In this document: piece after piece, positions 1-6,928 of the stretch
How the letters are laid out: the number at the start of each line of letters is the position of its first letter
Position numbering within the stretch: position 1 is the stretch's first letter
Virus record (IMG/VR): IMGVR_UViG_2675903352_000017
Span: 1-6,928 of that record
Direction: 5' to 3' (one strand)
Source: a virus
Lineage: Duplodnaviria > Heunggongvirae > Uroviricota > Caudoviricetes
Length of the DNA stretch: 6,928 bases
Translations under genes and position numbers: made by a program
The notes under the pieces: model-generated
The model's input: only the letters and a program-made list of their open reading frames with translations
Databases searched by the model: none
What the model was told of the DNA's origin: nothing

Positions 1-138
1 AAAGGCCCCATAAGGCGCTCGCGCTAATGACACCCGTGGAATATATTTTAAGAGAGAACAAAAATTGCAATATGTGGTGGACCCATACATCTCCTTGCCT
101 TTCGGCACGTAAGAGGCTAACCTACATGTGTCTAGCAT
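1..138 (-). CDS. Partial hypothetical protein, 5' end only; the frame runs off the window start
   Basis: ATG at 138..136 on the - strand, preceded by GAGG (150..147) with an 8-nt spacer and an in-frame upstream stop. The frame stays open for 46 codons to position 1 (MLDTCRLASYVPKGKEMYGSTTYCNFCSLLKYIPRVSLARAPYGAF...). No family recognised; too short for the ORF track. Confidence 0.2.
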   Translation of the reverse strand, partial: MLDTCRLASYVPKGKEMYGSTTYCNFCSLLKYIPRVSLARAPYGAF

Positions 139-202
139 GAAATTGGCCTCAGATTAATGTTAAGCGTCTTGCAGGACGCGTAATGTTAACTGGGGCTTTT
201 CT

Positions 203-238
203 CTATCTGCCGTTGGTGTTCATGCCCGAGGCAGATAG
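203..238. repeat. 9-bp perfect inverted repeat CTATCTGCC / GGCAGATAG separated by 18 bp
   Basis: Read directly: 203..211 CTATCTGCC and 230..238 GGCAGATAG are exact reverse complements. No U/T run follows on either strand, so it is not an intrinsic terminator; it could be a protein-binding site or an RNA stem. Confidence 0.35.
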
Positions 239-292
239 CCTCAAGCACCCACAGCCATTCTACTTAACTACCGTTACCTCGCCAATATGAAA

Positions 293-397
293 TCAGTCAG
301 AAAGGCGATCCATAAGAACAACAGCAAGGCAATAAATTGCCATTACAGCAGCAATAGCCAGCGCACATTTCAGAACCAGCACAATGACCTCCCACAT
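293..397 (-). CDS. Small hydrophobic peptide, about 29-42 aa with one predicted transmembrane helix; hypothetical
   Basis: - strand frame MWEVIVLVLKCALAIAAVMAIYCLAVVLMDRLSD, stop TGA at 295..293. Three in-frame starts are possible: TTG 421..419 (AGGAGG about 10 nt upstream), ATG 397..395 (no SD), GTG 382..380 (GGGAGG 393..388, 5-nt spacer). It overlaps the listed + strand ORF 287..481 antisense, so which strand codes is unresolved. Confidence 0.25.
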   Translation of the reverse strand: MWEVIVLVLKCALAIAAVMAIYCLAVVLMDRLSD

Positions 398-493
398 TTG
401 ACGTACACGTGCATGATTCAATATGTGGCAACCTCCTCCTTGCTTCAATGCAAAATCAAGTATTGTTGTATAACTATTTAACCAACTCCCTAT

Positions 494-537
494 CCCCGCA
501 TCTCAGGCGCCCAACTTATGTGTGCGGGGCGTTTTTT
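494..537 (+). terminator. Putative rho-independent terminator on the + strand
   Basis: GC-rich stem options CCCCGCA (494..500) / TGCGGGG (523..529), or CGCCC (508..512) / GGGCG (527..531), followed directly by T6 at 532..537. On the - strand the hairpin is followed by AUAGGGAG, not a U tract, so it is directional for + strand transcripts. Confidence 0.4.
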
Positions 538-543
538 AATACC

Positions 544-627
544 TTACCCCCAGCGGCAAATCAAATACACCACCAGCGCCACCGCCAGTGCAATACCTAC
601 TGTTGTGAATGCCTCAGGCCAGCTCAT
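544..627 (-). CDS. 27-aa predicted single-pass membrane peptide; hypothetical, last gene of a three-gene operon
   Basis: ATG at 627..625, translation MSWPEAFTTVGIALAVALVVYLICRWG, stop TAA 546..544. A strong SD AGGAGG sits inside the last two Arg codons of the upstream 115-aa gene, 7 nt before the ATG. Hydrophobic core with a basic C-terminus. Below the ORF-track size cutoff. Confidence 0.45.
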   Translation of the reverse strand: MSWPEAFTTVGIALAVALVVYLICRWG

Positions 628-631
628 TGAT

Positions 632-979
632 TCACCTCCTTCGTGGTTCTGGTAGCGGCATCCAGTCGGTTACATTGCGGCTCTGTGTTTCAAAAAATTC
701 ATTACCATTGCGGACAATATCGAAAAACTCACCGTCTCGATATTGCGCATGAAGAACGAATGCGCCATCACATAAAATAATTACGTGCTGACCATCACCT
801 AGCATTCGCTCACTACAGCTTATCCAACCGCCCGAAGTTACCGGAGAGTTGCCAGTCTTACGCATGGCAATCTCCACGATTTCAACCATATCTCCTGGTG
901 GAATTTTACAGTGCTGACCCAAATGCCTCTGCTGCCTGGCATACTCAAGGATGTGCTCCAGTTTGATTCGATTAATCAT
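632..979 (-). CDS. Hypothetical protein, 115 aa, second gene of the coupled operon
   Basis: Complete ORF from the track. Its ATG (979..977) overlaps the TGA stop of the upstream 135-aa gene as ATGA; GGAG lies 7 nt upstream. No family recognised from the sequence (MINRIKLEHILEYARQQRHLGQ...). Confidence 0.7.
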   Translation of the reverse strand: MINRIKLEHILEYARQQRHLGQHCKIPPGDMVEIVEIAMRKTGNSPVTSGGWISCSERMLGDGQHVIILCDGAFVLHAQYRDGEFFDIVRNGNEFFETQSRNVTDWMPLPEPRRR

Positions 980-1383
980 GATTTATCTCCCTTAAGCATG
1001 GCTGCACGACAGGCCTCTTTGAGCACCCAGTCAACCGCGTCTTTCCATGCTCCGGTTTCGACTGGCGGATTTTCACGCTTAACCTGTTCATAGAAACGCA
1101 CTGCTTTAATCAATCCTTCTGGTGTCAGTGACACAGGTGTAGCGGTGAATAGAGGTTTAGGTGTTATCTCTGCACGTTTTGCGTATGCATCAACTGTGTC
1201 AGGATTAAACAGGATTATGTTTTCGCCGTATTCCCACGCTATCGGCTCTGCTTCCAGCGATGCCAGAGCAATTTTGAATAACTCACCCTCTACTCGTGCC
1301 ACCCCTGAATTGGGGTGGCATTTCGCAATCGCTATTTTTAATTTAGCTTCTTCGATTAATTGCTCTTTTGTTAATTCAGTCAT
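976..1383 (-). CDS. Hypothetical protein, 135 aa, first gene of the coupled operon
   Basis: Complete ORF from the track (MTELTKEQLIEEAKLKIAIAKCHPNSG...). It follows a 158-bp AT-rich intergenic region and is same-strand coupled to the 115-aa gene. No family recognised. Confidence 0.7.
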   Translation of the reverse strand: MTELTKEQLIEEAKLKIAIAKCHPNSGVARVEGELFKIALASLEAEPIAWEYGENIILFNPDTVDAYAKRAEITPKPLFTATPVSLTPEGLIKAVRFYEQVKRENPPVETGAWKDAVDWVLKEACRAAMLKGDKS

Positions 1384-1392
1384 TTTTCATTA

Positions 1393-1408
1393 CCGCCCTT
1401 TCGGGCGG
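1393..1408 (-). other. GC-rich hairpin with a GAAA (GNRA) tetraloop in the 5' leader of the 135-aa gene
   Basis: - strand RNA reads AGGAGG-CCGCCC-GAAA-GGGCGG-UAAUGAAAAAUGACU. A 6-bp GC stem (1393..1398 / 1403..1408) lies between an AGGAGG motif (1420..1415) and the start codon at 1383. A 4-codon mini-ORF (ATG AAA AAT GAC TGA, from 1390) overlaps the real start. No U tract follows, so it is not a classic terminator. Confidence 0.3.
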
Positions 1409-1541
1409 CCTCCTGATGTTTTGAGGGTGCAGGAATCCCTCCTGTTAAGGATTAAATTTTATTTACAGTGCTGAGATTAATTATTCAGATTTGAATTATG
1501 TTTTCTCTTTCACTTCACGCAGTCCTGATTGTTAATTTGGC

Positions 1542-1958
1542 TCACAGTACCACCTCCTGCAAACTTCCCTTCCAGAAAGCCAGCACGCGCTGCATAGTTT
1601 CGCTCTGACGGCACTCTCGGCAAATTATGTTCTGTCTCCTGTTGTAACGGCGTATCTCGCTATCTGGCAATGAATAAACCAGGTCGGGGTCGTTCTTCTT
1701 TTTCACTGCCGCTCTCGACATTTTTTTGCAGGCTTTTATCCAGTCCTTACGAGCCTGTTCTGAAGGAAATATTCCATGGCCTGAACCATATAGCGTGCCA
1801 CTAACTACCAGCTCTTTCGCCAGAACTTCTATCAGGTGTCTCGTTGCTCCGGTTTCATCCTCCAGTTGCTTACGTGTTTTCCTCCCATCTCTGCGCACCA
1901 GTTCCACAATACGCGCCTTCAGTTGCTCCCGATATTCAGGTGTAAAAACGTTTCTCAT
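1542..1958 (-). CDS. Hypothetical protein, 138 aa from the ATG at 1958; the longest ORF begins at 2015 (157 aa)
   Basis: Track ORF 1542..2015. The internal ATG at 1958..1956 is preceded by GGTGAGG with a 5-nt spacer and avoids a 50-nt overlap with the upstream gene, so it is the preferred start. Product MRNVFTPEYREQLKARIVELVRRDGRKTRKQLEDETG...; basic, no family recognised. Confidence 0.6.
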   Translation of the reverse strand: MRNVFTPEYREQLKARIVELVRRDGRKTRKQLEDETGATRHLIEVLAKELVVSGTLYGSGHGIFPSEQARKDWIKACKKMSRAAVKKKNDPDLVYSLPDSEIRRYNRRQNIICRECRQSETMQRVLAFWKGSLQEVVL

Positions 1959-1965
1959 AAGTGCC

Positions 1966-2727
1966 TCACCTTTCCGACACAACGCGACTGGAGGAATCGA
2001 CAATCTGTCGGACAATATCCCGGTGTTTATTCAGCTCCCGCAGCGCGGCGCAGACGCGCTCCCACTTCTGGACATGATTTTTCGCCCGGCGCAGTTCGCG
2101 GTTTGCCAAATGCAGCGATGGTAAAATCAGGTCATCCGCCCGCGTTTCGGTGAACGATGGCAGCGACTGCACAATGTCCGCCACAGTTTCTGTTTTAATT
2201 TCTTCCTGTGTTACAGTTTCCTGTGCTGGTAACGCAACACCTGCTGGCTGAGGAAAGGCTTTACCATCTGTTTCCGTTACCAATGCGGCTTTCGGCTCTG
2301 CTGGTAAATTATCGTCCGGCATGCAGTAACGAAATTTACCGTTCTGATTTACGCGAATCAGGCGACCTTTGCTGATTGCCTGAGCCAACGTTGAAGCCAC
2401 TTTGCGTGATGTGATACCGAACAGCGTAGCCAGCTCATCAGCCGTTTGTGGTCCGCGTTGTTCAATCGTCGCCGTTAAATCGCACTCTGAGATTTTCGCT
2501 ACTGTTGCCGTGGTAGTTTCTTCATGAAATTCAGCCCGGGATGCTTGTTCCTGCTGAGCATTGCTACCAGCCACACGCCAGGTGTACGCGGTTTTATCAA
2601 CGAAACCAGATTTTTTCAGTTCCCACAGCTCATTCAGTACCTCTTCACGACTGATATCAAGTCGCGCAGCAAGTTCTATGGATGTGGCCTTTCCCATCGC
2701 TTTCAGTGCGTCAAAAACAGTCTCCAT
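1966..2727 (-). CDS. Hypothetical DNA-binding protein, 253 aa from the ATG at 2727; the longest ORF begins at 2778 (270 aa)
   Basis: Track ORF 1966..2778. The internal ATG 2727..2725 is preceded by GGAGG (2740..2736) with an 8-nt spacer and removes the 29-nt overlap with the DnaC-like gene. The N-terminus ([43 protein letters not shown]) and a second segment ([32 protein letters not shown]) look like winged-helix/HTH motifs; that reading is inference. Confidence 0.65.
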
Positions 2728-2749
2728 TAAAATTTCCTCCCGGTAAAAA

Positions 2750-3496
2750 TCACTTCGTGATTCCTGGCTGGACGACATTCGGGCGCCAGCTTTCCCAGTT
2801 AAAAGTCACCCAGCGCCCGCCGTTCATGGTCATGCGATCCATAATCCTCTCGCCGAGCAACGTTTTCATGGCCTCATAGTTCAGGTTTGTCAGCATCCCC
2901 ATACTGCGCATCGATGCTGTCCGGCGATCAACAATCTGATGCAGCACCACCTGCTCGTTTTTCGTCTCACGCTGAATGCCAATTTCATCAAGAACCAGCA
3001 GATCCACTTCGCACAGTTCCCGCAAAAATTTTTCGCCTGACTGCCCGTCGTCATAGCTGGCGTGCAGGGCACTCATAACATCAGCCACAGTAACCACTAT
3101 CACTGTCTGGCCGTCTTTCAGCAGGCGATTCCCGATAGCCGCCGCCAGATGGTTTTTTCCGGTACCAGGTTTTCCGCTGAACGCGAAATTTGTGCATCCG
3201 GTCATCAGTTCATCAGCGATGGATTTCGCCTGACTTAACGCGTATCGCTGGCCGTCGTTCTGTACATGGTAATTCGCAAACGAGCATTTACGGTGCAACG
3301 GCTGGATGCCTGAGCGATTCAGAATTTTTTCCACCCGCAACTGGCGATTCAGGCGGTTGATCTCCTCGCTACGCTTCTGGCCTTCAGCAAGTTGCCACTC
3401 GCGCCACTCCGCTACCGTTCTGAATGGGGCGGTTACATGTGGCGGGGTCAGTCTGCGGATACGTTCCAGAACGCCGCCTGTCGCAATATTTTTCAT
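2750..3496 (-). CDS. ydaV: DnaC-family replicative helicase loader (AAA+ ATPase)
   Basis: 248 aa. Walker [18 protein letters not shown], Walker [10 protein letters not shown], and C-terminal [21 protein letters not shown]...[10 protein letters not shown] align along the full length with E. coli DnaC as I recall it. It follows the initiator gene after a 6-nt gap. The symbol is given from family plus synteny with Rac (ydaU-ydaV). Confidence 0.92.
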
Positions 3497-3502
3497 GGTT
3501 CG

Positions 3503-4465
3503 TTACCCCCTGAACCCCGGAGGAATTTCGGTGTCCGGTTCAGAAATATGATTCACACAACGCTGTACAGGTGAACGCCCCAGGCGGATGACCAGTTCGT
3601 CCCATTTTTCGCGGAGCTTTGACGGGCTCATGATGTTTTTTACCCAGAATGGATCCCGCTGTACCCGCCCAAACATTTCGCAAATTTGTCTGTGAGTTCT
3701 GCCATCCAGCATCCGCATTGTGCGCACGTCATTGGCCCACGCGGTCCAGTTTGGTTCTTTCGGTCGCGTGATCTCGCCATCATCGCTGGCCGCCTGCTCG
3801 TAAAGACTCACGATTCGTCCCCAGATCCACTGTGCGCACGCCAAATCTTCCTGACTTCCCCACTGGCGTTTTTTCGCACTGAACACAACCGCATCAGGGT
3901 GTCGGGTTAAAAAATCCTGTTCAGCCGTCTGCGGGTCCGGTTGCGAAGCGTCCGGACAAGAAGATCTTTTATCTGATGGATCAGATTTTAATACTGACGG
4001 ATCGGGGTCAATCATCGCCCCCCTAACCGACCGTTTTTTATCAACGGTTGATCCATCAAAATTTGACGGGTCAACCGTTGAGGGGTCAATATTTGACGGG
4101 TCAACCGTTAACGGGTCATTTTTTGCCGGGCTAATTTTTCTTTTCGGTTTATATGCCTCTCGCGCCGCCGCTGCTGCAGCTTCGAGTTTTTCCACATTAA
4201 GCCGGTAGATATTGCTTACGTTACGTCCGCCAACCTTACGCTCTTCCTTTGTCAGCCAGCCGCTTTTTTCCAGTTCCGCTATCGCCGCTTTAACCGTTGA
4301 TTCACTCTTTGCCCCAATCTGACGACGAATGGTCTCTACTGCAGGCCATGACACACCTTCATCATTGCTGTAGTCTGCAAGACGAGCCATCACTGCCACC
4401 CTGGATAAGATCATGCCGGTGAAGGCACACCCTTCCCAGACAAGACCATGAAGCTTGCTGCTCAT
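3503..4465 (-). CDS. Phage replication initiator (O-like origin-binding protein; YdaU-like by position)
   Basis: 320 aa. N-terminal winged-helix pattern typical of phage/plasmid replication initiators (ILSRVAVMARLADYSNDEGVSWPAVETIRRQIGAKSESTVKAAIAELEKSGWL). Central repetitive linker PLTVDPSNIDPSTVDPSNFDGSTVD is encoded by the iteron DNA. Sits immediately upstream of the DnaC-like loader. Confidence 0.8.
   Translation of the reverse strand: MSSKLHGLVWEGCAFTGMILSRVAVMARLADYSNDEGVSWPAVETIRRQIGAKSESTVKAAIAELEKSGWLTKEERKVGGRNVSNIYRLNVEKLEAAAAAAREAYKPKRKISPAKNDPLTVDPSNIDPSTVDPSNFDGSTVDKKRSVRGAMIDPDPSVLKSDPSDKRSSCPDASQPDPQTAEQDFLTRHPDAVVFSAKKRQWGSQEDLACAQWIWGRIVSLYEQAASDDGEITRPKEPNWTAWANDVRTMRMLDGRTHRQICEMFGRVQRDPFWVKNIMSPSKLREKWDELVIRLGRSPVQRCVNHISEPDTEIPPGFRG
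3995..4155. repeat. Putative origin of replication: iteron cluster and adjacent AT-rich tract inside the initiator gene
   Basis: Perfect 19-bp direct repeat ATTTGACGGGTCAACCGTT at 4061..4079 and 4091..4109. Related partial copies: TGACGGATCGGGGTCA 3995..4010, TCAACGGTTGA 4041..4051 (inverted relative to 4071..4081), GGGGTCAAT 4082..4090, ACGGGTCA 4111..4118. An AT-rich stretch follows at 4118..4155, and several GATC sites sit at 3979..4052. Same logic as lambda ori lying inside gene O. Confidence 0.6.
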
Positions 4466-4488
4466 AAAAAACCCCGAACACCGTGCTT

Positions 4489-4914
4489 TTAGTGCATCAC
4501 CACGGCATTTCCTGCCGGGCCACCGCGATTAATCTGGTTGAAACCAGCAATTGCCACCGCAATAAAATCATCTGCATCCCTCACCAGCCGCTCCCGCGTC
4601 TCCAGCAGCTCCCGAAAATAGGCTGAACTGTGACTGCGCATTCGGGCCACCAGCAGAGGCGGCATTGCCTTTTCGATCGCAGGTAACAACGCCTGAATTT
4701 TTTTAACCGCATCAGGGGTGTCTTTCTCCACCCAGCGGAAAATTTTCTGAGTATTGCGAGCCAGGGCTTCAGGATGGCTGTCGTCATATAATTCCGGGAA
4801 CGTCATACCCAGCTCAAAATAAGCTCGGGTTATTTCAGCCGCCGGAACTTTTTCGCCATCAGGACGCGCCCAGGCATTCATCGCCATGCGGATGTGTTCA
4901 TGCTTGATTTTCAT
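4489..4914 (-). CDS. ydaT: YdaT-like protein (proposed CII-like regulator / toxic product of the Rac early-right operon)
   Basis: 141 aa, immediately downstream of the Cro-like gene and upstream of the initiator, matching the size and position of Rac ydaT (about 140 aa). Assigned by synteny and size; I cannot verify the sequence match from memory. Confidence 0.6.
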   Translation of the reverse strand: MKIKHEHIRMAMNAWARPDGEKVPAAEITRAYFELGMTFPELYDDSHPEALARNTQKIFRWVEKDTPDAVKKIQALLPAIEKAMPPLLVARMRSHSSAYFRELLETRERLVRDADDFIAVAIAGFNQINRGGPAGNAVVMH

Positions 4915-4936
4915 GAATCATTTGCCTCTTGATGTT

Positions 4937-5233
4937 TCAGGTATGATCAAATGAGGATTTGTTACTGTCATTTAGTTGCTTCACTGACATATTCTGCGAA
5001 TAACATGCCGAACGTCGTAAATATGACCAGTCAATATCAGGACGAAGTTCTTCGCACAGAACGTCACCTCTTGTTGCACGTTCAATTGCTGGACATCTCT
5101 CTGCAGGCAATTGACGTACCCCTTTGATCCATTGATTTACGCTTGGAGGTGATACACCTAAAAGCCTAGCCATTGCTGATTGCCCACCGACAACAGCACA
5201 AGCTCGCTTGAATGAATAGTTCTCTTTTTTCAT
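4937..5233 (-). CDS. ydaS: Cro/YdaS-family HTH DNA-binding protein, first gene of the early-right operon
   Basis: 98 aa; MKKENYSFKRACAVVGGQSAMARLLGVSPPSVNQWIKGVRQLP... matches my recollection of E. coli K-12 Rac YdaS nearly residue for residue. HTH motif present. GGAG sits 8 nt before the ATG. Divergent from the repressor gene across the operator region. Confidence 0.8.
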   Translation of the reverse strand: MKKENYSFKRACAVVGGQSAMARLLGVSPPSVNQWIKGVRQLPAERCPAIERATRGDVLCEELRPDIDWSYLRRSACYSQNMSVKQLNDSNKSSFDHT

Positions 5234-5259
5234 CGAATGAACTCCAAAAACACACAGAG

Positions 5260-5289
5260 ATATTAGGCGACGCCTAATGCTAATGTCAA
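5260..5289 (-). promoter_or_regulatory. pR-like sigma70 promoter for the ydaS-ydaT-replication operon
   Basis: - strand -35 TTGACA (5289..5284), 18-bp spacer, -10 TAATAT (5265..5260). The -10 and spacer overlap operator O1. The predicted transcript start is about 20 nt upstream of the ydaS SD. Confidence 0.5.
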
Positions 5290-5329
5290 TAGGCTATGCC
5301 TAATGCAGTAAGAATAGGGATTGCCTAAT
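5262..5329. promoter_or_regulatory. OR-like tripartite operator: three 17-bp palindromic sites, consensus ATTAGGC-N3-GCCTAAT
   Basis: O1 5262..5278 ATTAGGCgacGCCTAAT (perfect inverted repeat); O2 5288..5304 AATAGGCtatGCCTAAT; O3 5313..5329 AATAGGGattGCCTAAT. Centres are 26 and 25 bp apart. The sites lie between the divergent repressor and Cro-like genes. Confidence 0.6.
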
Positions 5330-5334
5330 ACAAT
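5329..5334 (+). promoter_or_regulatory. Possible -10 element of a pRM-like repressor promoter (weak or absent -35)
   Basis: TACAAT at 5329..5334 on the + strand, about 7 nt before the racR SD AGGAG (5341..5345), with no good -35 hexamer 17 bp upstream. Resembles an activator-dependent pRM-type promoter next to O3. Speculative. Confidence 0.25.
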
Positions 5335-5356
5335 GAGCATAGGAGAATATTAAGCA

Positions 5357-5833
5357 ATGCTTAGTGGTAAAGACTTAGGCCGAGCAATAGAGCAGGCCAT
5401 TAACAAAAAAATCGCATCGGGATCCGTCAAATCAAAGGCGGAGGTCGCTCGCCACTTCAAAGTCCAACCACCATCAATCTATGACTGGATTAAGAAAGGC
5501 TCCATAAGTAAAGATAAACTTCCAGAATTATGGCGTTTCTTTTCTGATGTTGTTGGTCCAGAGCATTGGGGGCTTAACGAATACCCCATACCAACCCCCA
5601 CCAACTCAGATACAAAAAGTGAACTTTTAGACATAAACAACCTTTATCAGGCAGCCTCTGATGAAATAAGAGCGATTGTAGCTTTCCTGTTATCAGGAAA
5701 TGCTACAGAACCAGACTGGGTTGACCACGATGTTCGCGCCTACATAGCAGCGATGGAAATGAAAGTTGGTAAGTATCTGAAAGTTCTAGAATCTGAACGG
5801 AAAAGCCAGAACATCACAAAAACTGGAACTTAA
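5357..5833 (+). CDS. racR: Prophage repressor, RacR-type (cI functional analogue, HTH)
   Basis: 158 aa; MLSGKDLGRAIEQAINKKIASGSVKSKAEVARHFKVQPPSIYDWIKKG... matches my recollection of E. coli K-12 RacR in sequence and length. HTH near the N-terminus. Flanked on both sides by arrays of the same operator palindrome. Confidence 0.85.
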   Translation: MLSGKDLGRAIEQAINKKIASGSVKSKAEVARHFKVQPPSIYDWIKKGSISKDKLPELWRFFSDVVGPEHWGLNEYPIPTPTNSDTKSELLDINNLYQAASDEIRAIVAFLLSGNATEPDWVDHDVRAYIAAMEMKVGKYLKVLESERKSQNITKTGT

Positions 5834-5846
5834 ACTTATATGGTCT

Positions 5847-5876
5847 GACGGAAAACTCCTGGATTCCGTTATTTAA
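5847..5876 (+). terminator. Weak candidate terminator or stem-loop downstream of racR
   Basis: GACGGAA (5847..5853) pairs with TTCCGT (5864..5869) around a 10-nt loop, followed by TATTTAAT. Stem is short and the U tract imperfect. Confidence 0.2.
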
Positions 5877-5928
5877 TCCCTCCCATCACTTTTTTCATTC
5901 GCATCACCTATTGGGTTACGCCCAGAAC

Positions 5929-5972
5929 ATTAGGCAAAGCCTATTGACAATCAATTAGGCATTACCTATAGT
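5929..5972 (+). promoter_or_regulatory. pL-like sigma70 promoter with two overlapping operator sites (OL-like)
   Basis: -35 TTGACA 5944..5949, exact 17-bp spacer, -10 TATAGT 5967..5972. Operators O4 5929..5945 (ATTAGGCaaaGCCTATT) and O5 5954..5970 (ATTAGGCattACCTATA) are 25 bp centre-to-centre and overlap the -35 and -10. Confidence 0.6.
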
Positions 5973-6071
5973 TCCAGCATGCCACCCACCCCGCCCCACA
6001 GCACGCAGGGCAATACTTCGAGTTACCAGGCAGTGGTCAGGGGTTAAGTAGCCAGCCCGAGGCGTAAGAAC

Positions 6072-6302
6072 ATGACGGCAGGGTTCAACTTTAACTATGC
6101 AGCAGGTTTTTGTTCCGCTACCCCGGCGTTAAGGGGAAATGAGGTCAGCATGGATACTATCGATCTTGGCAACAACGAATCTCTGGTGTACGGCGTGTTT
6201 CCCAACCAGGACGGCACGTTCACCGCGATGACGTATACCAAAAGTAAAACGTTTAAAACCGAAGCTGGCGCGCATCGCTGGTTAGCAAGAAACTCTGACT
6301 GA
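6072..6302 (+). CDS. Small hypothetical protein, first ORF of the early-left operon (76 aa, or 50 aa from the internal ATG at 6150)
   Basis: Track ORF. ATG 6072 has GAGG 9-10 nt upstream; the internal ATG at 6150 has GAGG 6141..6144 with a 5-nt spacer (MDTIDLGNNESLVYGVFPNQDGTFTAMTYTKSKTFKTEAGAHRWLARNSD). Rac carries small ORFs (ydaG/ydaF) in this position, but I cannot confirm the sequence identity. Confidence 0.5.
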   Translation: MTAGFNFNYAAGFCSATPALRGNEVSMDTIDLGNNESLVYGVFPNQDGTFTAMTYTKSKTFKTEAGAHRWLARNSD

Positions 6303-6313
6303 TGAGGTTGACG

Positions 6314-6928
6314 ATGGAATTTAAAGATTTACCTACTTCAATCCAGGAGATTGCAGCACACACACTTCGTCATCGTCTGAACGAACTTGCATTGGAATCG
6401 GTAACGAAAAAAGACACTGATAATATGGCTCGTAATGTGCGCGATGCGTTTACCGGATTGTATTTCTGTGCGTCTGTAAATAAACACGACTCAGAGAGTG
6501 TGGCAAATAAAATTGCAGAAACGACAGCGCAAAACATCAATACGAAACCAACGGAAGAAGAAATTGATCAGTTTGCTCATGATGCTGGTTTAAAAAACAA
6601 GAAAGAAAAATCGCCATATGCGGGGAACATGTTTGTTTATGACAATCTCATCAGAATTCGTGGCGAAATTCCGGCGGAATACCTGGCAAGAGTCCATCAG
6701 GCATTGCTTAAAAATCTGGAAACAGAATTATTTGATGGCAACACTAACGGTTTCTTCATGGTATCAGGCCTTGAGAAAGACTGGGATGCAGAAAAACGCT
6801 GGAATGTTGCTACATGGTTATTCAGTAACAGAGCCGCTGCTCTGGAAGCTTCGGCATGTATTTGCGGCCTGTTCTTAACAGACCACAAATATAATCTGGA
6901 TGTGTACAGTTATATTTACGCTGGTTAA
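6314..6928 (+). CDS. Hypothetical protein, 204 aa from the ATG at 6314 (208 aa from the ATG at 6302, which overlaps the upstream stop as TGATG)
   Basis: Complete ORF ending with TAA at the window edge. GAGG 6304..6307 lies 6 nt before the ATG at 6314. Product MEFKDLPTSIQEIAAHTLRHRLNELALESV... is hydrophilic, with no transmembrane segment and no motif I recognise. It sits in the early-left operon driven by the pL-like promoter. Confidence 0.7.
   Translation: MEFKDLPTSIQEIAAHTLRHRLNELALESVTKKDTDNMARNVRDAFTGLYFCASVNKHDSESVANKIAETTAQNINTKPTEEEIDQFAHDAGLKNKKEKSPYAGNMFVYDNLIRIRGEIPAEYLARVHQALLKNLETELFDGNTNGFFMVSGLEKDWDAEKRWNVATWLFSNRAAALEASACICGLFLTDHKYNLDVYSYIYAG

Follow-up and report, generated by a model that had tools for sequence, protein, structure and literature searches.

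A 3′-truncated prophage gene of family phrog_2151 behind a RacR-type repressor, fused to a jetC remnant

What is the gene that follows the repressor in the early-left operon of a Rac-like prophage, and what might its product do? The question is raised by a stretch of 6,928 nucleotides (nt) of Caudoviricetes DNA (IMG/VR record IMGVR_UViG_2675903352_000017, positions 1 to 6,928; hereafter the window), which closes with an open reading frame (ORF) running to its very last base. A preliminary description, made from the letters alone, had treated the product as a protein that could not be placed in any family, as the main cargo of the operon, and as a reasonable candidate for a new exclusion or host-takeover function. 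We conclude that the ORF is a real, 3′-truncated copy of a common Escherichia coli prophage gene family, phrog_2151, whose members are natively 212 amino acids (aa) long. The native family gene is the second cistron, after the DUF1391/YdfA gene, of an early-left transcription unit in Qin/Rac-like lambdoid prophages, and the truncated copy sits in a decaying prophage. The earlier reading is therefore partly supported: the protein is uncharacterised, as had been said, but it is no more than a candidate for an exclusion or host-takeover function. What had been an unassigned cargo gene becomes an incomplete copy from an orphan family that was already catalogued, lying beside a probable deletion.

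A common but functionally unassigned prophage family

An ORF of 204 or 208 aa, depending on the start codon, is present at 6302..6928 on the + strand, much as it had been described. Residues 5-207 of the longer translation match positions 1-203 of the 212-position phrog_2151 profile (PHROGs category: function unknown), leaving the C-terminal tail of the family incomplete. Relatives are 98% identical in protein and 99.6% in DNA sequence, and the last 229 nt of the family gene occur in 587 of 5426 complete E. coli genomes (about 11%). Shiga toxin-producing (STEC) and enterotoxigenic (ETEC) strains are among the carriers of the family. The sequence is thus not that of a new protein. The idea that it could not be placed holds in that no characterised family was matched, but the family itself was already catalogued.

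Apart from a few in Salmonella, the protein relatives come almost entirely from Escherichia; they are labelled 'hypothetical' or occasionally 'Ybl81', and no paper mentioning the family or that name was found in the literature. A paper on the svsR small RNA concerns a different locus. Only 55 matches were obtained when 1.84 billion representative sequences were searched with the family profile: the full-length family forms a single 50% cluster, most of the other matches cover the N-terminal domain only, and many are frameshifted fragments (one 5212-aa eukaryotic repeat protein, P0141, is a low-complexity artefact). At least 95% of the sampled family copies are intact, and the ratio of nonsynonymous to synonymous substitution rates (dN/dS), 0.22 in the C-terminal domain and 0.62 in the N-terminal domain, indicates purifying selection and hence a real, selected gene.

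Searches for a characterised relative gave nothing: there was no meaningful family match for the protein in Pfam, NCBIfam or PADLOC (a Pfam match to P33MONOX at E = 0.13 is noise), no match in sequence searches of the PDB with the single protein or the family profile, and no match at E<=0.001 when the AlphaFold2 model was compared by Foldseek with the PDB and with the viral structures of BFVD. The two outcomes that would have spoken against an unrecognised phage function, namely a characterised phage protein family or homologues in diverse non-phage settings, did not appear, the homologues being confined to prophages. Nor does the protein resemble YdaG, YdaF, SieB or KilR, the early-left genes of Rac with which a comparison had been proposed, or YdfB and YdfC of Qin.

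Several other candidate identities were set aside. The reading of the 'IPxxY...NG' motif as SUKH/SMI1-KNR4 found no such Pfam match at E<=0.5-1. Homology to phage 186 CII is not supported (BLASTP E = 1.8; hhalign probability 0.1%), and the E. coli family has no helix-turn-helix (HTH). A SieB identity is likewise rejected, as the preliminary description had anticipated: the protein is hydrophilic and acidic (grand average of hydropathy -0.44, isoelectric point 5.4, highest 19-aa hydropathy window 1.16), no membrane segment was found in the hydropathy computation, and there is no Pfam match and no similarity to Rac SieB. The impression that the region is richer in A+T than the replication genes, and shares this with the whole immunity region, was also correct (G+C content 41% in the ORF, 43% in racR and cro, and 51-54% in the replication genes).

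Where does translation begin? Starting at ATG 6302 the product has 208 aa and at ATG 6314 it has 204. The stop/start overlap TGATG by which the gene was thought to be coupled to a small upstream ORF does exist (6300-6304), but the start in use would most likely be ATG 6314, giving MEFKDL. It is preceded by the Shine-Dalgarno sequence GAGG, nothing comparable lies in the bases preceding ATG 6302, the phrog_2151 alignment begins at M5 of the 208-aa translation, and the MEFKDL start is used both in RefSeq annotation of the relatives and in the gene call of the source contig. Translation thus probably does not begin at the overlap, and an 11-nt gap separates the two cistrons. The small upstream ORF, too, is real, although it is not the 76-aa ORF: it encodes a 50-aa DUF1391 protein from 6150 (residues 2-49 against positions 1-48 of the 48-position Pfam profile), also preceded by GAGG, with 94% identity to Qin YdfA and 82% to Rac YdaF.

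The 3′ end is a fusion to a defence island

Up to position 6923 the gene is 99.6% identical in DNA to the copy in E. coli 377323_2f. There every E. coli relative reads on as ...YIYA-EHGPLWIDW-stop (GAA CAC GGT..), completing 212 aa, while the window reads ...YIYA-G-stop and then ends. The final nine residues of the family (EHxPLWIxW, profile positions 204-212), which are nearly invariant and include a tryptophan (W209) conserved also in the Salmonella relatives, are replaced by a glycine and a stop. An exact protein match places the window at positions 2-6929 of contig BBVQ01000060.1 (GCA_001514805.1). From 6924 onward its sequence is that of an island in E. coli DETEC-P881 (our locus L011, from position 14001), entering the mukB-like gene jetC at about codon 1293 of 1527 and out of frame. 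The last two bases of the glycine codon (codon 204) and the TAA that follows are all jetC bases, so the stop of the ORF is fortuitous.

Past the junction the contig has three genes pointing the same way: a 219-aa ORF whose product has an SbcC/Rad50 Walker-B motif, a JetD-like gene, and PDC-S71, a candidate defence gene. They are followed by a convergent Gabija pair, with gajB truncated and a frameshift in gajA, and by a gene for a ~1470-aa protein of no known family. This part of the contig (L009, 6925-16929) is a decaying defence island: its jetC remnant comprises the last ~235 codons, the PDC-S71 match has E = 4e-111, and gajB is cut by a second deletion, of 1.29 kb. The intact island of DETEC-P881 lies at tRNA-Asn and has mukE-like and mukB-like genes (jetB and jetC), followed by jetD, a hypothetical gene, gajB, gajA and further genes; jetA is probably the hypothetical gene just upstream of jetB.

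How might the two have come together? In strain 377323_2f a prophage with the family gene is inserted at tRNA-Ser/mtfA, a short distance upstream of tRNA-Asn, shiA and amn, with the same orientation. One deletion of about 20 kb, from a prophage at tRNA-Ser/mtfA into an island at tRNA-Asn, would give exactly this junction. An exact-match scan of genome contigs for the junction gave no match. The source contig is without the convergent small gene, dicF, dicB, kil, exonuclease, xis and int genes that follow in intact relatives, a comparison which suggests that they were lost from this genome. Such a deletion, proposed from the comparison of strains, apparently joined a Rac/Qin-like prophage to an island with Wadjet and Gabija and, it seems, inactivated prophage and Wadjet alike: the prophage is left without int, xis and dicBF, and Wadjet has neither jetA nor jetB and lacks 85% of jetC.

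Could the junction at 6924 instead be an error of assembly, the true gene being intact? The genome is a draft whose 26-kb contig begins inside hok, and the frameshifts in gajA might reflect sequencing errors. Both the junction and the 204-aa product nevertheless recur in two assemblies, one from NCBI and the other made independently by Logan from run DRR017189, with three contigs carrying the junction. This recurrence argues against an assembler artefact, and the join is clean, co-linear and oriented as a simple chromosomal deletion between the prophage and the tRNA-Asn island would leave it. We regard an artefact as very improbable.

Two further IMG/VR loci (L130 and L147) have family copies ending ...WIDWFKG, without the small convergent gene and with another convergent ORF, of 172 aa, downstream. 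Taken with the junction in the window, these variant ends suggest that recombination recurs at the gene's 3′ end.

The early-left unit in intact relatives

Intact relatives have, in this order, the repressor, promoter, leader, DUF1391 gene, family gene, a convergent 69-aa ORF, DicF (Rfam scores 76 and 67 bits), dicB, kil/DUF1482, an 823-aa exonuclease, xis and int. The DUF1391 gene immediately precedes the family gene in all 61 loci compared. The window shares with dicBF-type operons a repressor-operated promoter and a first gene of the DUF1391/ydfA type; downstream, in place of DicF and dicB, the source contig has the jetC remnant, jetD, PDC-S71 and Gabija. The family gene can thus hardly be called the main cargo of the operon: this copy is a truncated relic, the relatives' operon runs on through DicF, DicB, Kil/DUF1482 and the exonuclease to xis and int, and the impression arose because the window ends at the junction.

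The nearest known plan is that of the K-12 Qin dicBF operon, ydfA-ydfB-ydfC-dicF-dicB (PMC5069750, PMC10448788), whose literature treats ydfABC as uncharacterised. As in Qin, a repressor-controlled promoter is followed by a DUF1391 gene, small uncharacterised proteins, and then DicF and DicB. Unlike Qin, the family gene takes the place of ydfB and ydfC, its product being much larger, two-domain, and without similarity to YdfB (42 aa) or YdfC (72 aa), and Qin has no convergent small gene at that place. The Rac early-left region (racR-ydaG-ydaF, convergent sieB, kilR) is also among the closest known systems. It has a RacR 99.4% identical to that of the window and the same DUF1391 gene, and in both regions a convergent gene abuts the last promoter-proximal gene (sieB in Rac, where it overlaps ydaF; the phrog_4274 gene, discussed below, in the family loci). 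The family protein itself is without similarity to SieB, YdaG or KilR.

Control by the repressor

The preliminary description had placed the ORF downstream of a repressor and a promoter like that of the left operator (OL), and both elements proved to be there. The repressor is a RacR homologue. Between racR and the ORF is a promoter with 11 of 12 consensus matches (TTGACA at 5944, a spacer of 17, TATAGT ending at 5972). The palindrome TAGGC-N3-GCCTA gave 10 strand-matches in the window against 0.38 expected (none of 200 shuffles reached 10). Its five copies, spaced about 25 bp apart, are confined to two control sites, two copies at the early-left promoter and three between racR and the divergent cro/ydaS-like gene, with none elsewhere in the window. 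This confinement, together with the near-consensus promoter, supports the OL-like assignment well; the palindromes are presumably RacR operators.

In relatives with other immunity types, homology to the window begins at 5975-5984, right after the -10 hexamer, so that the mosaic joint between the immunity region and the early-left module lies at the transcription start. The same block of leader, DUF1391 gene and family gene follows repressors of the RacR, DicA and CI/LexA types. This variety, with the breakpoint after the -10 hexamer, indicates a transcription-unit module that has been grafted onto many immunity regions. There is no correlation between the allele of the N-terminal domain and the immunity type, and one and the same allele is found behind RacR, DicA-like and CI/LexA-like repressors. 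The leader RNA itself (5979-6152) has no Rfam match and folds no better than shuffled sequences (z +0.86).

When would the protein be made? A promoter scan found no internal promoter for the family gene; without one, and placed behind operators, the gene should not be expressed in the lysogen. With these features and its lytic or host-directed neighbours, the protein would be made only once the repressor is lifted, by induction or derepression; this expression logic is well supported. It weakens the analogy with rexAB and sieB that had been offered for the gene. Genes of the rexAB, sieB and BstA types are found next to the immunity region, and rexAB and sieB are expressed in the lysogen.

The position beside the immunity region is, all the same, what would be expected of a lysogen-protecting exclusion or defence protein, Rex-like or SieB-like, or DicB-like when expressed, that blocks superinfecting phages. 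Two other observations are in keeping with such a role: copies of the gene are overwhelmingly intact, and DicB, of the same operon type, protects against some phages when expressed (PMC6832061). Some read-through is also conceivable, as there is no strong terminator from racR to the gene. No canonical terminator was found between racR and the early-left promoter; after the racR stop there is only a weak hairpin (5846-5871, UGACGGAA...UUCCGUUA; -10 kcal/mol, z -1.1) followed by UUUAAU. On the other side are the operator-covered promoter with none nearer the gene, the lytic or host-takeover character of the neighbours in the unit, the lack of a membrane segment, and the outcome of a search of PADLOC-DB v2 (including Rex, Abi and PD-lambda), in which the window protein, a full-length relative and a Salmonella relative matched no known anti-phage defence family. 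Moreover, the lysogen-type 'sieB slot' is held by the convergent small gene and not by the family gene. An exclusion protein is accordingly quite unlikely in our view.

Two domains that recur in different proteins

The AlphaFold2 model (predicted local distance difference test score, pLDDT, 65; predicted template modelling score 0.45) and the alignments describe a four-helix N-terminal region, a charged linker, a C-terminal domain and a low-confidence tail. The N-domain and C-domain have separate distributions. Prophage proteins whose C-termini are unrelated share the first 55-60 residues (MEFKDLP...NVRxAFxGLY), and matches to residues 5-55 to 5-79 were also obtained with phrog_1363, 9419, 6937 and 33007. 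Examples are gp25 of the Stx phage PA2, from the exo-xis region, and a protein of 135 aa from the same slot of PPompW phages. In phrog_1363 and its kin from Stx and PPompW phages (PA2 gp25 has 147 aa) the likeness is in the first 55-80 residues and in the early-left/exo-xis location, whereas the C-terminal parts are unrelated to the family C-domain.

The C-domain was found elsewhere only in two Salmonella proteins, P0153 (220 aa) and P0140 (286 aa, annotated 'helix-turn-helix domain-containing protein'). They are 24-28% identical to it over the whole alignment, share the FDGxxNGxF loop and W209, and have a homologous convergent small ORF next to them. They differ in having another N-terminal region, with or without a DicA-like HTH, and in following cox in an int-C-cox switch of P2/186 type rather than lying in a lambdoid early-left region. 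In P0140 the DicA-like HTH (Pfam HTH_3, E = 8e-6; NCBIfam DicA, E = 2e-11) lies between the N-terminal region and the C-domain. The Cox-family gene that directly precedes each of the Salmonella C-domain genes is unusually long (167-168 aa; L006 7466-7972 and L007 7450-7953). These loci have an int/C-repressor/cox switch, with an Exonuc_VIII gene further downstream like that of the E. coli loci, an arrangement that is a hybrid of a P2-like switch and Rac-like early genes.

Might the protein then be a developmental regulator, N-like, CII-like or anti-repressor-like, with the C-domain serving as the oligomerisation or sensing module of a transcription factor that tunes the choice between lysis and lysogeny or the early operon? 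The HTH of P0140 and the position of the Salmonella genes right after cox are in favour of this, as are the promoter-proximal position, which is that of N in lambda, and the nearest folds, all non-significant, which are oligomerisation or regulatory domains. The E. coli family and P0153, however, are without a DNA-binding domain, phage 186 CII shows no similarity, and the gene, being combined with many unrelated repressors, is not immunity-specific. Taking these points together, we consider a regulator unlikely.

The residues invariant across E. coli and Salmonella are mostly hydrophobic, together with the FDGxxNGxF turn, and form no catalytic-looking constellation. This pattern, with no match to a catalytic family, points to a non-enzymatic binder.

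A convergent small gene accompanies the C-domain

In the E. coli loci the 3′ end of the family gene faces that of a convergent 69-aa ORF, phrog_4274 (L001 12980-13189, - strand). The Salmonella loci, although of a different prophage type (order int, C repressor, cox, gene), have a convergent ORF of 64-69 aa that overlaps the 3′ end of the C-domain gene (L006 8611-8820 and L007 8851-9045, both - strand), is 44-52% identical to that of E. coli, and matches phrog_4274 at E = 1.5e-20. Synonymous sites in the small gene are saturated between the genera, and dN/dS is 0.18-0.27 within each, which speaks for a genuine coding sequence. The two genes occur together in 58 of 58 loci counted from the side of the small gene and in 58 of 60 from the large, and like the family the small gene is found in Escherichia and Salmonella. 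Most of the loci being near-identical, it is the case across genera that carries most weight. The model of the phrog_4274 product (pLDDT 81) is a soluble two-helix hairpin with a basic disordered tail.

Other variants of the N-domain are accompanied by other convergent ORFs: a 112-aa variant by a 68-aa ORF, and the 135-aa PPompW variant by phrog_10348. The first of these pairs is in L132 (3001-3340; the 68-aa ORF begins 'MEDKMSEQELK...') and the second in L005 (5010-5628; phrog_10348 has 77 aa). Such substitutions suggest that the stretch from the N-domain to the dicF leader holds a cassette that can be exchanged. In Rac, sieB is convergent at exactly the same position. Unlike SieB, the phrog_4274 product is a 69-aa soluble, basic helical hairpin and not a membrane protein. 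In P22, Esc and SieB provide a case of an early-expressed partner beside a lysogen-expressed gene.

It is conceivable, then, that the C-domain and the convergent phrog_4274 gene make up an unrecognised two-gene cassette at the sieB slot, one of an interchangeable set sharing the MEFKDLP N-domain and the dicF leader, in which a small factor, possibly expressed in the lysogen, meets an early-expressed cognate binder, either for exclusion and escape (as with SieB and Esc) or as toxin and antidote. We put this forward as a doubtful but readily testable hypothesis; the cross-genus pair is the transferable lead from this locus, and a modest one overall.

A more specific version would make the C-domain a growth inhibitor, with the convergent small protein or an antisense transcript neutralising leaky expression in the lysogen. 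The C-domain does co-vary with its cognate convergent ORF across genera, other variants having other ORFs, and the 3′ ends abut or overlap tail to tail. The conserved N-terminus, variable C-terminus and adjacent small gene recall polymorphic toxin/immunity cassettes, and the same class of operon is rich in toxic products (DicB, DicF, Kil and YdfD; PMC5069750, PMC8835842). Yet no toxin-like fold or motif was recognised, the invariant residues are mostly hydrophobic, and the supposed antidote is convergent rather than co-transcribed. The gene is also not among the inhibitors reported from the division and growth screens consulted, where UTI89 carries ydfABC instead (PMC6206680). An ordinary type II toxin-antitoxin module was set aside, as the partner is not co-directional and neither toxin nor antitoxin families were matched. 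A toxin of this kind thus seems improbable.

What might the protein do?

Overall we favour an early-expressed, non-enzymatic binding protein of a dicBF-type unit, truncated in the window by fusion to jetC, a reading that we find about as easy to believe as to doubt. The product would be a cytoplasmic two-domain protein acting by binding and not by catalysis. Its helical N-domain would be a shared module that recurs with different C-termini, and its α/β C-domain a specific module for partner binding or oligomerisation. The likeliest partner of the C-domain, we suggest tentatively, may be the phrog_4274 product, or alternatively a host target. The role would then be that of an early modulator or antagonist of the small factor encoded on the opposite strand, or of the host target, accessory to the core lytic machinery and no part of it. 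The company that the gene keeps gives the question some interest, as it shares its operon with DicF and DicB, which have known effects on division, metabolism and phage resistance.

Several points weigh against this view of an early binding protein. Homology searches gave no match that bears directly on function, the structure model is only moderate and every fold match to it is non-significant. Read-through from racR, past the weak hairpin, could conceivably give expression in the lysogen. As to the pairing, two of the 60 family loci are without the small gene, for which no convincing promoter was found. The near-identity of the E. coli loci means that their co-occurrence counts are not independent, so that the pair rests mainly on a single comparison between E. 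coli and Salmonella, and the linkage may only reflect a variable DNA segment between conserved, recombination-prone flanks.

Features of the window

Table 1. Coordinates of the features discussed, in window numbering
Feature	Position	Strand	Basis
OR-like operators, TAGGC-N3-GCCTA (n=3)	5264-5276, 5290-5302, 5315-5327	palindrome	between racR and divergent cro/ydaS-like gene
racR repressor gene, 158 aa	5357..5833	+	NCBIfam RacR equivalog, E 6.4e-73, above curated cut-off
OL/pL-like control region, operators overlapping and flanking the promoter	5931..5972	+	motif and promoter scan
OL-like operators, TAGGC-N3-GCCTA	5931-5943, 5956-5968	palindrome	flank and overlap the early-left promoter
5′ leader of the early-left transcript, kept together with the downstream genes	5973..6149	+	conserved in relatives with other repressors
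DUF1391 (YdfA/YdaF-type) gene, 50 aa, first gene of the unit	6150..6302	+	PF07151, E 3.5e-29
Shine-Dalgarno GAGG for ATG 6314	6305..6308	+	read from sequence
Native part of the phrog_2151 coding sequence (residues 1-203 and first base of codon 204)	6314..6923	+	phrog_2151, E 1.4e-137
N-terminal helical domain, residues 1-90	6314..6583	+	predicted helices 8-24, 32-55, 60-74, 81-90
C-terminal α/β domain, residues ~100-189 (ββαββα, invariant FDGxxNGxF loop)	6611..6880	+	alignments and model
Start of fused jetC (mukB-like) remnant, deletion junction	6924..6928	+	comparison with family and L011

At the other end of the window is a sok antitoxin RNA (84-250, - strand; Rfam RF01794, 110 bits). The hok gene that belongs with it is cut by the start of both the window and the contig; the locus is of the hokD type and is found at the same place in the related prophages L001 and L002.

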